The notes under the pieces: model-generated
Seen by the model: only the letters and a program-made list of their open reading frames with translations
Databases searched by the model: none
What the model was told of the DNA's origin: nothing
DNA from: Eledone cirrhosa
Taxonomy: Eukaryota
NCBI GenBank assembly: GCA_964016885.1
Contig: OZ024742.1
Span: forward strand, 240,684,001 to 240,748,000
Direction: 5' to 3'
Length of the DNA: 64,000 bases
Shown here: positions 30,323 through 61,590 of the stretch, in pieces
Position numbering within the stretch: the first letter of the stretch is position 1
Layout: every line of letters begins with the position of its first letter
Position numbers and translations under genes: made by a program

Positions 30323-30390
30323 TAGATATACTGAAAACAAGGACGTTTTATGTAAACAAATTACATAACACGTCCTAAATGTATATATTT
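30323..30390 (+). ncRNA. Degenerate hammerhead
   Basis: agatata-CTGAAAA...ggacgt/acgtcc long stem II-TAAA-tgTA-tatattt; stems kept, core mutated. Confidence 0.4.
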
Positions 30391-30476
30391 CGGCAGACAG
30401 GCAGAGTACTGAGTTTTGACAAGTACCAATCAGTACGAAAGAGCGCTGTCAACTTATCTCCTCCTGCCTGCCGAAA
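30388..30476 (+). ncRNA. Extended type I hammerhead with U3-A8 variant core
   Basis: tgagtt-TTGACAA-gtac-caatca-gtac-GAAA-gagcgctGTC^aactta; homologous to the canonical HHR at 61383-61475. Confidence 0.75.
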
Positions 30477-30631
30477 ATTTAAGTAAGCGACAATGTCGCT
30501 ACTTTAAAACAATAGCGTATGATCTTCAAAATACTTTTAATTAAGCATACAGTGTATTGCAAAATACACTATATATATATATCACTATTTCAGAGCACCA
30601 ATTCTAATATATATATATATTACAACCAAAA

Positions 30632-31137
30632 TTAAATAGAAAATATGAGTGGAACAGCAACATCACAACTTACAATTAAGGACAAAATGAAAATACACAC
30701 ACACATAGAACAAACAACCAACCAGTAACATGTAAATAAACAAATAAATAAATGAACATAAACACACACAGACACCCGGATGTGGCGCATGCGCAGACTG
30801 AGCACACAACACACACACAGAAACAAAATGGCGTAGGACAGAACAAAGGAGAGGCACAGAAACAAAGAAAGGAATCCCCAGTCACTGAAGAGGTCACAGA
30901 GTGTGTGACGAAAGAACTATGACAATATATAAACAACTATCTGGTTGTGGACCAGCCAACCAACCAGAAATTTATAAATTTATAAATTTATTATAAATTT
31001 ATTATAATAAATTGAAGTGAAAGCAACAGGTGCGTGTGTTTCTTATTGGCAACATGACCCTCCCAAAGTATAACAATATCGGTTTCAACACACGATTTCA
31101 GATAAAGAATCTTGCTAAACAAATTCAGAAACGAAAT
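30632..31137 (+). mobile_element. Non-autonomous HHR-bearing element; copies at 47058-47440, 48752-49048 and 50596-50660
   Basis: Shared sequence ending ...aaacaaattcagaaacga(aa) then (TA)n. Confidence 0.8.
30881..30923 (+). ncRNA. Minimal type I hammerhead
   Basis: gtca-CTGAAGA-g-gtcaca-gagtg-tgtgac-GAAA-gaaCTA^tgac. Confidence 0.8.
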
Positions 31138-31164
31138 ATATATATATATATATATATATATATA

Positions 31165-31639
31165 TATATATCATAAAACATGTCTATAGAATCACAAGAT
31201 AAAATATATACTATTTCCTCTCCCAATTAGCATAATTAACCATATAAAAAATCGAATAGACCAGGCTATAAGAATGAGGCTTCTACGAAGGAATCTCCGA
31301 CAAATAACCGAAACTAGCGCTTCGCGTCGGCCGTAGCGGAATATTTATCGAATATTTCGACAGCGTAATCGCCCAGAATTAGGTGTAAAATAAAATTTTA
31401 CACCTAATTCTGTTTAGTTGACTGTATCTGGGCGATTACGCTGTCGAGATATTCGATAAATATTCCGCTACGGCCGACGCGAAGCGCTAGTTTCGCTTAT
31501 TTGTCGGAGATTCCTTCATAGAAGCCTCATTCTTATAGCCTGGTCTATTCGATTTTTTATATGGTTAATTATGCTAATTGGGAGAGGAAATAGTATATAT
31601 TTTATCTGGTGATTCTATAGACATGTTTTATGATATATA
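31165..31639. repeat. Fold-back element: ~210-bp arms with a nested hairpin at 31374-31412
   Basis: 31165-31377 versus 31427-31639 with few mismatches. Confidence 0.95.
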
Positions 31640-31946
31640 GCTCTGATTGTTTAATTTATTAATTTTTCATTGAGCCACAAAGTGACCAGTTGCAAAACAC
31701 GTATATGTATATGTATGTATATATATATATGTAAACTTTTATATATATATATATATATATATATATATATATATATATATATATATATATATATGTGTGT
31801 GTGTGTGTGGGTGTGTGTGTGTGTGTGTGTGTGTGTGTGTGTGTGTGTGTGTGTGTGTGTGTGTGTATAACTAGAGTGTGTGGTGTTGCTACCGAGGGGC
31901 TCACTAATCATGTGAGTAATCGATACATGGGGAGATGTAGAGTGGG

Positions 31947-32008
31947 TATAGAGATGTGTAAAATCCCGACCACTTGGCGCCGTGGTCGGGATTTTACACA
32001 TCTCTATA
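31947..32008. repeat. Perfect inverted repeat (26-bp arms)
   Basis: tatagagatgtgtaaaatcccgacca / tggtcgggattttacacatctctata. Confidence 0.95.
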
Positions 32009-32231
32009 TATATGTTTATACATATACATACATATATATATATATACATATATACCACACACACACACACACACACACACACACACACACACACACACAC
32101 ACACACACACACACACACACACACACACACACACACACACACACACACACACACACACACACACACACACACACACACACACACATATATATATATATAG
32201 AAGTGGTTACACAACAGTTAGTTCACCATAC

Positions 32232-58518: not shown

Positions 58519-59213
58519 TTAAGTTAAACTATATATAAGTTAGAGCCACAATATACAGGAAGTGTAGGAGAGCAGTCAGTTATATATACATTCACTCACT
58601 AACTCACCGATATAGTTTTAGTAATTGCTGACAGTGTCAGTGTGTTGGACAAATGTCTTGTATATAGTTACGGCCCTTTCACTTCCCACCGAGGTTAACT
58701 ACTTTTCATCCTTACGGAGTCGGTGAAATAGAGCAATAGTTAAGTACTAGAATCAATATAATCGACTATTCCATTCCTACAAATTGCAGGTCTTGTGCTT
58801 ATGGAAGAAATCAATAAGTGCTTAGATTGAAAAGATAACTCTGTCATGCTGATCAATATTAAATATGCCCTAGTTCACTTTAAAATGCAAATTGTATTAT
58901 GAAAAAATGCTGAATGCATACTTATGTTGTAAATATGCTGACAGCTTGTTTTCTATTTACAGACAGGCATCCATTTCTACCAGTAAGCAATCAACTATGG
59001 TATAGCAATATTTTAAAGAAAAAACATCAAGAACCACACGATATTCTGGGCGGGTCATCTTTTCAGCAGAAATCTAAAACTCATGTAGAATTGTGGAGGA
59101 AACATCAGCAGAGAACAACACTAAATAAACGGCTTTTATAACCTGACAATAAATTCTCATGATAATCGATGCACTGGGGCTTGTGTCAAATATGTCATAT
59201 TACTTACAGAGTA

Positions 59214-59337
59214 AGGGCGGTAGATTTGGCAGTATCGGTAGAGGGTCGGACGCCATGCCTTGCAGCATAGAGTTATGGCTCTTTATGATCTGAGTTAAAT
59301 CCCGCCGAGGTTAACTTTGCCTTTCATCCTTCGGGGA
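59214..59337 (+). mobile_element. SINE 5' half fused to an inverted LINE fragment
   Basis: Family match ends at ...catccttcgggg. Confidence 0.8.
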
Positions 59338-60365
59338 TGCCAGTCTGTGATCCATTGTTGCATTGTGTCCAGGTCAGATTGCAAGCAAGATCTATAGTGT
59401 TCAGGATCTATCCTTTTTATCTCAAGGTACAGCTTGATGTCCTCTGCATATTTTAGTACTGTGGCATTCTTTAAGTTGGCATCTATGTCATTAATATATG
59501 CCACAAACAATAGGGGGCCAAGAACAGATCCCTATGGTACACCAGATGACATCTCATACGGTGAGGAATGCTGTCCTAGAACTGTGACTACCTCTCTTCG
59601 AATGAGAATGAAGGACTTCAACCAGTTAAAAAGATCATCCTTCACACCCATTACAGAGTGTTTTGCCATAAGTCTTTTGTGTGGCACAGAATTGAAAGCT
59701 TTAGCAAAGTCAAGGTAAACAACATCCACCCATGATCCGCCATCAGTAATCCGGGTGATGTCTTCAAGAAACTCAATAAGTTGATCACAGCAGCTGGAGT
59801 TAGGGATAAATCCAAATTGCGAGGGCCGGATAAAACTGTGAGAGTTCCAGAAGTTCCAAAGTGTTTCTCTGACACAGGATTCAATCAGTTTGGTTAGACT
59901 GAATGGACGATAGTTCACAGGTGATGTGCGGTCACCTATTTTGAACAGAGGAATGACACTGGCAGTTTTCCACTGTTCTAGAGTAGCACCGTTGTTCAGA
60001 CAGAATTGGAAGAAGCGTGATAGTTGGTGCAGAAGGAAGTACCCACCACGTTTGAGAAGCAGGTACGTAACACCAGGAGAGGCATGGTTGCGTTTATTTT
60101 TAAGGTGACGTCTCAGCATTGCAGGTGTAAATTCCATGGTTGTAATAGAATCCGGTGTCATAGGTGGAGGAGACGGTACACTCTGGTCTTCAATAGTGAA
60201 AATGCCTGCATAGCATTCAGCAATAAGCCTGCGCATTCCTTGGGGTCGTCAGTAATCTGGCTTGTGTGGGGATTGCGAAGAGGACCAACTGGAGAGTGAG
60301 GTCTCTGCTTTGAGTGAACATACTTCCAGAACACCTTACTGTCAGGGCTGGTTGCTATGCGCTGC
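59338..60365 (-). pseudogene. CR1/L2-type LINE RT fragment
   Basis: VIPLFKIGDR..PVNYRPFSL, QFGF, YLDFAKAFNSVPH, SGVP*GSVLGPLLFVAYINDI, KYAEDIKLY. Confidence 0.9.
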
Positions 60366-60565
60366 NNNNNNNNNNNNNNNNNNNNNNNNNNNNNNNNNNN
60401 NNNNNNNNNNNNNNNNNNNNNNNNNNNNNNNNNNNNNNNNNNNNNNNNNNNNNNNNNNNNNNNNNNNNNNNNNNNNNNNNNNNNNNNNNNNNNNNNNNNN
60501 NNNNNNNNNNNNNNNNNNNNNNNNNNNNNNNNNNNNNNNNNNNNNNNNNNNNNNNNNNNNNNNNN
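60366..60565. other. Assembly gap (200 N)
   Basis: N run. Confidence 1.
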
Positions 60566-60651
60566 ACTATAGGGAGGTGTGTAGGATACATACATACATA
60601 ATACATACACACGACACTCAGCTTTATAATATTATATATACATATATATAT

Positions 60652-61021
60652 ATAAGGAAATGGTAGTTTACTTGAAGCATTGTGTAGTGAGGTATAAACG
60701 TTTGTAGTTGTAAGGCCTAAACAATGCAGGTATGGATATAGAATATAAATACAAATGCAAAAGATATCGCTGACAATTAGACTTTTACCTTAAATTTATT
60801 TGAATATCCTTATATTTCGAGATAATATCTCTTCTTAGCTAATTAGAACACTGAATTAATCCCTTTACTTCCCTCTGAAGAAGAGATATTATCTCGAAAT
60901 ATAAGGATATTCAAATAAATTTAAGGTAAAAGACTAATTGTCAGTGATATCTTTTGCATTTGTATTTATATTCTATATCAATACTTGCATTGTTCTGGCC
61001 TTCTAACTTTAAACGTTTATA
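60652..61021. mobile_element. ORF-less fold-back relative of the 42229-45155 PLE termini
   Basis: Arms 60693-60837 and 60878-61021; homologous to 42242-42430. Confidence 0.85.
60872..60906 (+). ncRNA. Minimal type I hammerhead
   Basis: cct-CTGAAGA-a-gagat-att-atctc-GAAA-tATA^agg. Confidence 0.75.
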
Positions 61022-61171
61022 TATATATACATCTATCTATCTAGGGCGGGTGAAATTCCCGAGATCCATAGACGAGTTCTCTCCAGCGATCTCTGTCCCT
61101 CATTATCGCTGCCTTGTCCTGCGTCTCCAACAGACCGATGTCTGTCCTTAGGGCATCAACATATGTTAACA

Positions 61172-61590
61172 TAGTCACTACTTTAAAACAATAGCGTAAG
61201 GTTTTCAAAATGTTTTTAATTAAGCGTACAGTATATTACCAAATATACTGTATATACATTCATATATACATCGCTATTTCAGAGCACCAATTCTAATTTT
61301 CAATTTTTGCTGGACCGGCAACCGTTCTGTTTAATCAGTTCTTGATTATTACTAGAATTCTATAAGAATCCAACATTTATAATTTTCAACAGACAAAGGC
61401 GAGTGCTAAGCTCTGATGAATACCAACAGTATGAAACAGAGATCTGTCAGCTTATCTCCCTTTGTTTGTTGAAAAAAGAAGCAAGTGACTTAGTCACTAC
61501 TTTAAAACAATAGCGTAAGGTCTTCAAAATGATTTTAATTAAGCATACAGTATATTGCCAAATATACTACATATACATTCATATATATAT
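61172..61590 (+). repeat. Partial tandem repeat (319-bp period) with HHR; retrozyme-like
   Basis: 61172-61268 repeats at 61491-61587; homolog at 30388-30608. Confidence 0.85.
61383..61475 (+). ncRNA. Complete extended type I hammerhead ribozyme
   Basis: taagct-CTGATGA-atac-caaca-gtat-GAAA-cag-agat-ctGTC^agctta; stem I continues beyond an internal loop. Confidence 0.92.

Follow-up and report, generated by a model that had tools for sequence, protein, structure and literature searches.

Retrozymes without long terminal repeats (LTRs) are described from coral, mussel and axolotl by Cervera and de la Pena (2020, PMC7229834), who propose Penelope-like elements (PLEs) as their mobilisers, report target-site duplications of more than 4 bp when present and refer to a supplement for further invertebrate retrozymes. 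Vertebrate retrozymes are presented as PLE derivatives from their homology to pseudo-LTRs (pLTRs) in Xenopus (Li, Clavereau and Pollet 2026, bioRxiv 10.64898/2026.07.22.740005). According to PMC4209133, the minimal hammerhead ribozyme of PLEs has a long helix II, a short helix I and an absent or minimal helix III. For PLE insertions, Craig et al. (2021, PMC8557442) describe an inverted 5'-truncated copy, a 30-40-nt tail confined to one end and targets that are AT-rich or (TA)n, and for the Anolis Poseidon PLE, Frangieh et al. (2024, PMC11167929) describe two adjacent internal reverse transcriptase (RT) starts, one of them in an AC-rich stem-loop. Hammerheads with a U3-A8 core pair are published for the minimal ribozymes of the Schistosoma Cercyon PLE (about 1,300 hits; PMC4209133) and for other natural hammerheads, with in vitro activity cited (PMC3088659). 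Two questions are open for animal retrozymes: which retroelement moves them, and whether they need their ribozyme, which was dispensable for a PLE in vitro. Here, we analyse a stretch of 64,000 nucleotides of Eledone cirrhosa DNA (the window; positions 240,684,001 to 240,748,000 of OZ024742.1, our contig C3, assembly GCA_964016885.1), which holds two hammerhead-bearing repeats, copy A (U3-A8) and copy B (C3-G8). The original prediction had taken them as members of one retrozyme family with a switching core pair and covarying helices.

Copy A and copy B belong to one non-coding mobile repeat of about 320 bp, with copies numbering in the thousands in this genome. In the 3.0-Gb assembly, DNA searches with the two copies returned 2,185 and 2,122 candidate places (40 scored for each), an exact 30-nt pattern of the 3' part matched 6,443 times and matches to a loose pattern of the ribozyme numbered 3,001, while the reversed-pattern controls gave 0 matches; the 314 loci fetched represent 259 distinct places. 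The predicted motifs (cores, stem I, stem II, distal stem and two downstream hairpins) all lie where they had been placed, and chance is made improbable by the empty reversed-pattern controls and the folding of both copies (z = -5.4 for copy A and -5.2 for copy B against 200 shuffles). The unit is about 320 nt long and wraps back on itself, as 122 of 473 3' segments continue into a following unit. In 14 of 116 insertions, ribozymes on the same strand lie less than 450 nt from each other, with a modal spacing of 320, most spacings at 310-327 and 10 of the 14 between 292 and 327, and loci other than the window copies do hold two consecutive units with complete ribozymes. No open reading frame (ORF) of at least 150 aa overlaps copy A or copy B (primer-binding sites and polypurine tracts were not part of that search), and the GC content of 2-kb bins is 0.32-0.34. 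The differences between copy A and copy B are inherited from their subfamilies, and are not independent changes in these two copies.

The core pair 3-8 varies as a unit. A single pattern allowing the four transition states matched C-G 506, U-A 1,067, C-A 15 and U-G 19 times, i.e. the pair is coupled in 1,573 of 1,607 copies and uncoupled in 34. The 2:1 excess of U3-A8 in these counts is a pattern effect, as judged from 97 arms chosen by their 3' end: the 44 that retain the ribozyme region comprise 21 U-A, 21 C-G, 1 U-G and 1 gapped copy. Apart from N7 and C/U17, the other positions of the core hardly vary in these arms. The predicted coupling thus withstood the comparison with independent change in both samples (42 of 44 in the second). 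The uncoupled copies are singletons scattered within both core groups, and a second ribozyme, matched at 13 of the 34 uncoupled loci, is coupled in 13 of 13 cases, which together point to decay after insertion.

On the family tree, as reconstructed from the sampled copies, the pair has switched as a coupled pair at least twice, which extends the prediction. First, with the trait columns dropped, a tree of 58 pattern-picked copies (uncoupled and heavily truncated copies left out) needs 2-3 changes and rejects a single U3-A8 clade (p-AU 0.000255). Second, a tree of 96 subsampled coupled copies, with the two trait columns dropped, needs 2 changes. Third, the second U3-A8 group adjoins the ACGC C3-G8 group, one of the stem II subfamilies that looser patterns recovered (GTAC/GTAC, GCAC/GTGC, GCAT/ATGC, ATAC/GTAT, ACAC/GTGT and ACGC/GCGT). 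A single switch had been read from a first tree of 145 copies found with narrower patterns, and was overturned once the looser patterns added subfamilies. As the tree is unrooted, the changes may represent one gain with either a second gain or a reversal; rooting it or ordering the switches by age gave no result, the ages of the subfamilies overlapping. A very short conversion tract between subfamilies is a conceivable alternative. The subfamilies on the tree lie about 3-10% from their own majority. Coupled switching suggests that self-cutting is needed for spread, and we regard selection on ribozyme function in the source lineages as likely. Another U3-A8 subfamily, with stem II GCTT/AAGC and an altered stem III (L190:5086-5521 and L166:3181-3441), was missed by the search patterns, so that the diversity of the family is underestimated.

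The predicted covariation over several helices was also found. Among 122 copies of the first subfamilies, Watson-Crick double changes occur in 9 of 61 pairs, versus 1.83+-1.12 on column re-pairing (0 of 5,000). Among 32 copies chosen across subfamilies, 93.5% of cells pair and 22 of 53 pairs show a two-sided change versus 5-9 in slid controls, relatedness inflating the shuffle control of this test. All four stem II pairs and the distal stem covary. So does one pair in each of the four 3' hairpins (hp1-hp4), two more hairpins than had been predicted: U-A/C-G in hp1; C-G 46, U-A 33 and other 2 of 81 readable in hp2 and G-C 49, A-U 47 and G.U 1 of 97 in hp3 (both in the 3'-picked set); and U-A 110, C-G 40, U.G 7 and unpaired 3 of 160 in hp4. 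The alignment row of L293 was mis-cut and served for the 3' hairpins only. No compensatory change was seen in two further hairpins of the spacer. Stem covariation could in principle be a by-product of palindrome correction in DNA or cDNA combined with transition bias. In its favour, transitions make up most of the compensations, these insertions often have fold-back junctions, and few independent events lie outside the ribozyme. Yet we hold this explanation to be highly improbable, for three reasons. First, G.U pairs and mismatches persist across whole subfamilies, some of which have fixed G.U intermediates. Second, pair 3-8 is a tertiary contact and not an inverted repeat, and nevertheless switched together twice. 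Third, the changes after insertion mostly break pairs (rare pair states in 220 of 282 cases, shared states in 7 of 25, among the 122 copies).

By inspection, constrained folding and covariation, the motif is a type I hammerhead with its core and helices I-III. Helix I (6 bp plus an extension), helix II (4 bp) and helix III (3-4 bp) depart from the minimal PLE hammerhead. Self-duplexes are predicted for each of the eight loop-3 variants tested, at -6.9 to -24.3 kcal/mol, against 0 to -1.8 kcal/mol for the monomer hairpin, as expected for the dimeric cleavage discussed in PMC4209133.

The insertions end at two places: in the ACAUUC loop of hp4 (181 ends), or about 30 nt on, after a tail (170 ends). 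Exactly one tail is present in 78 of 89 inverted pairs, the heads are inverted and truncated, and the flanks are (TA)n. A (TA)5 follows the tail in 130 of 170 cases, versus 425 of 3,080 background windows; the 75 of 89 counted after tail-less ends are inflated by the element's own TA and were not used. By their anatomy, the insertions carry the Penelope signature, namely an inverted 5'-truncated copy, a tail at one end and a microsatellite target, the (TA)n flanks making target-site duplications unreadable. A Penelope-type mobiliser accordingly appears highly likely from these ends. The outside hairpins had been proposed as RT-recognition signals: the two fixed ends just after them are consistent with this putative role, although each hairpin has a single covarying pair.

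The 5' ends bear on the template. They are scattered: of 96 arms, 60 extend across the cut site, 32 end before reaching it and 4 end within 5 nt of it. Read-through of the cut site without a pile-up suggests a template that was either circular or an uncleaved multimer, and on these ends a cleaved linear monomer is excluded as the usual template. The predicted 319-nt period is confirmed as a period, and its reading as a circular RNA monomer has to share the evidence with the multimer; a circle seems to us only slightly the better choice. In the multimer alternative, the ribozyme is real and not needed in each round: a Penelope-type RT copies uncleaved read-through RNA of a few tandem arrays, there is no circle, and selection was older or intermittent. 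The cut-site read-through fits it equally well, and arrays of at least 7 units exist. Two tandem U3-A8 arrays with sub-repeats (L248, G000:C1:82389800-82396600, and L151) present 10 ribozyme matches over 5.4 kb and 7 units, respectively, several of these units having A at position 3; both are candidate source loci. Furthermore, three loci (L034, L038 and L049) hold tandem units of mixed subfamilies, impossible from rolling around one circle, and a fourth (L082) a chimeric unit; in these four, two different U3-A8 subfamilies share one insertion, in both orders. Such insertions suggest template jumping or a heteromeric source, and one circle cannot account for every array. In the Poseidon PLE, the RNA used in vitro was mainly unprocessed (PMC11167929). 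Against this alternative stand the 2-3 coupled switches without any amplified uncoupled subfamily; the small divergence of the subfamilies that switched, which calls for selection during recent spread; and the circles reported as the main RNA form of the tested coral, mussel and axolotl retrozymes (PMC7229834). We therefore give it a minor, though not negligible, probability.

As to the mobilising enzyme, the genome contains an abundant intact element of 775 aa with RT, a CX4CxxC linker and GIY-YIG, which we call Neptune-like from the linker description in PMC8557442 and not from phylogeny. It ends in (TA)n and resembles the retrozyme in its two-end rule, a single tail being present in 4 of 4 inverted pairs. 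At three loci, it is joined to a retrozyme arm with no TA spacer between them. In two of these, among the 259 places (L311 and L059), the junction consists of a short fold-back followed by a sense-to-sense switch, which lies close to one and the same position of the Neptune-like element. At 1 of 36 fetched Neptune loci (L190), the inverted head consists of Neptune 3' untranslated region running into 1.3 retrozyme units. We read these three loci as putative template switching within one complex. Automatic block classification of the junctions was too crude for denominators and served for viewing them only. A Neptune fragment beside the retrozyme of L096 was discarded as a fusion, being a separate insertion across a TA run. 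These ends and junctions make this Neptune family a candidate mobiliser that we favour by a small margin over its being another Penelope-type element.

The unit might also be the truncated 3' end (pLTR) of an undiscovered autonomous PLE, the copies being its short insertions. The complete PLE insertion signature, the relation of Xenopus retrozymes to pLTRs (bioRxiv 10.64898/2026.07.22.740005) and the small number of this genome's PLE families in the comparison speak for it. Conversely, the sequence 5' of the ribozyme wraps into the unit's own 3' end with a constant period; none of 96 3'-picked arms continues into shared coding sequence at the inspected junctions; and comparison with six PLE 3' regions gave no homology beyond TA runs or weak antisense scores, nor did nhmmer find any in intact Neptune loci. 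Moreover, the genome's Neptune carries its own, different hammerhead-like motif of the minimal type. The unit is likewise no autonomous PLE, since it has no ORF with RT and GIY-YIG and wraps onto itself. That the unit is such a truncated 3' end we consider very unlikely. A look-alike seen by eye in the unit and a PLE 3' region (CTGGA...CTCTGTATAA) did not score.

We regard the following account as probable: the family is a non-LTR retrozyme with coupled core switches that is likely cut by its ribozyme, circularised and copied by a Neptune RT into (TA)n. Multimers would arise by read-through transcription at those loci, a minority, that have at least two units; from them the ribozyme, probably dimeric via its self-complementary stem III and loop 3, would release monomers to be closed by a host ligase. 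The Neptune protein would nick (TA)n and bind the 3' hairpin cluster, and cDNA synthesis would begin internally, from both strands, at one of two sites separated by about 30 nt; a main and an inverted arm would result, only one of them with the tail. The need for monomer release would keep pair 3-8 Watson-Crick in every amplified subfamily, and neutral decay of the copies thereafter would explain the uncoupled singletons and a stem III mismatch in copy A. Catalysis, expression, circularity and the partner are what we infer from the DNA. A bolder version, in which a ribozyme circle free of Penelope-derived sequence parasitises the Neptune RT through imitation of the structure at which that RT starts internally, repeated 3-8 exchange being kept, is tentative and in our view rather less probable than not; if true, self-cleavage would be required for the spread of animal retrozymes and the mobilising enzyme would be named.

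Several observations weigh against the account that we favour. Only a few core switch events (2-3) lie behind the large sequence counts, hp1-hp4 each owe their one covarying pair probably to one event, and the helices were drawn from the same sequences as those tested. Helices are weakened in several amplified subfamilies, by U.U or A.A at 10.1-11.1, by U.U/G.U in stem I or by G.G in hp1, and in 21 of 21 folded copies the minimum-energy structure is 0.5-10.7 kcal/mol more stable than the hammerhead. No Rfam hammerhead is among the matches listed for the window (150 of 210), nor at copy A or copy B. The ribozyme of the Poseidon PLE was dispensable for insertion in vitro (PMC11167929), and the unit failed to match the six PLE 3' regions. 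Lastly, the three fusions are possibly deletions after nested insertion, since the two with readable ends break the one-tail rule, L311 having both tails and L190 none; TA-separated neighbours also occur (L053 and L096); and other repeats abut arms directly, copy B itself abutting a LINE-like 3' end.

The features of the two window copies are collected in the table. The stem III mismatch noticed earlier in copy A is a private G at 30441, which breaks pair 15.2-16.2, a C-G pair in 116 of 122 aligned copies. Hammerhead cut sites are placed by the NUH rule, which predicts cleavage between 30450 and 30451 in copy A; in copy B, the predicted cut is between 61448 and 61449. Copy B is 5'-truncated, and its period is read as 61173 versus 61492. 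Each window copy has one ribozyme, instead of the two consecutive units with complete ribozymes that Li et al. (2026) expect of an active locus, so that neither alone can release a monomer. In contigs from three sequencing runs of one sample, loose ends at 61297 are followed by (TA)n; these contigs represent neighbouring repeats at high depth and have no bearing on expression or circles.

Table. Coordinates of the two retrozyme copies and their parts within the window.
Feature	Positions	Strand	Description
Copy A	30388..30608	+	Single 5'-truncated unit, U3-A8 subfamily; ~30-nt tail at end, then (TA)n
Copy A hammerhead	30388..30477	+	Type I, with distal stem; U3 = 30416, A8 = 30421
Copy A core	30416-30422	+	TTGACAA
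Copy A 3' hairpins	30486..30570	+	hp1 (30486-30500) through hp3 (30551-30570)
Copy B	61169..61585	+	1.3 units, C3-G8 subfamily, period 319; no tail, ends in (TA)n
Copy B upstream partial unit	61169..61297	+	3' hairpins and tail (61271-61297), tail continuing into spacer
Copy B spacer	61298..61382	+	Two small hairpins without compensatory change
Copy B hammerhead	61383..61475	+	Type I, 17-bp distal stem; C3 = 61413, G8 = 61418
Copy B core	61413-61419	+	CTGATGA
Copy B 3' hairpins	61484..61585	+	hp1 61484-61498, hp2 61529-61546, hp3 61549-61568, hp4 from 61569 (ACAUUC loop, site of the short 3' end)

The window contains other repeats. At 16029-20495 (-) lies a near-full Neptune-like PLE with a frameshifted ORF, whose RT part is 44-50% identical to that of the 775-aa element; it has a 378-nt inverted head, bears a tail at one end and is flanked by (TA)n on either side, and relatives of its 3' end are 99-100% identical (1,406 candidates), indicating a young family. 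No canonical hammerhead core was seen in it, and a U3-A8-like motif was dropped, as GCAA replaces GAAA in both arms. Penelope-like RT/GIY-YIG fragments of other families lie at 4537-5692 (-) and 42456-44658 (+). At 61030-61170 (-), the high-copy 3' end of a long interspersed nuclear element (LINE)-like repeat, presumably RTE-like, reads ...MRDRDRWRELVYGSREFHPP*, then a TAGA-type tail, and meets the 5' end of copy B head to head, no TA spacer lying between them. Next to it, at 60693-61021, is a palindrome resembling a miniature inverted-repeat transposable element, with 144-nt arms that are 93% complementary, repeated in the genome. A GGT-rich tandem array of 2.6 kb with long spurious open frames occupies 8386-10971.

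Together, these data describe a real family, well supported at the sequence level, whose internal evidence on selection and mobilisation is unusually good. Both the retrozyme class and the U3-A8 core were already known, which limits the surprise, and the core, published for natural and Penelope-associated hammerheads, is less surprising than the original prediction had judged. The family offers test material for the questions raised above, namely mapped RT start points and a candidate partner that is young and intact and occurs in three fusions. It also provides, for kinetics, matched natural ribozymes of the C3-G8 and U3-A8 types that stem from two separate switches and occur in many subfamily backgrounds; exchanges at 3-8 were reportedly studied in vitro by Przybilski and Hammann in 2007. 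Neither repeated 3-8 switching in one retrozyme family nor retrozyme-PLE fusions were found in the literature searched; subscription papers, repeat libraries and supplements may hold the family.

The family fits non-LTR retrozymes in every sequence feature tested, and its identity as a retrozyme is, in our judgement, very likely. Like the animal retrozymes as described in PMC7229834, it has a type I hammerhead with a short self-complementary helix III in a non-coding, low-GC unit within 150-450 bp, without LTR or ORF, in thousands of copies, with partial units and tandem arrays. Unlike them, its copies are mostly dispersed, truncated insertions of 1-2 units with mapped PLE-type tails and inverted heads, and it combines two core types in one family, known here from DNA alone. 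Similarly to the vertebrate retrozymes of bioRxiv 10.64898/2026.07.22.740005, it co-occurs with Neptune/Poseidon PLEs and has many monomers, whereas its link to PLEs comes from insertion anatomy and three fusions, and not from a homology such as that to the Xenopus pLTRs. It resembles the Anolis Poseidon PLE (PMC11167929) and PLE insertions in general (PMC8557442) in two adjacent, apparently internal starts that bound a tail, one of them in an AC-rich stem-loop, in an inverted truncated copy and in AT-rich or (TA)n target sites, Poseidon differing in being autonomous and protein-coding. Finally, the Schistosoma Cercyon hammerheads (PMC4209133) show the same compensatory core pair; the published U3-A8 cases, as presented in PMC4209133 and PMC3088659, are minimal, heterogeneous or scattered, whereas here the pair occurs with helices of canonical size within one family, with coupling counts and at least two switches on its tree.

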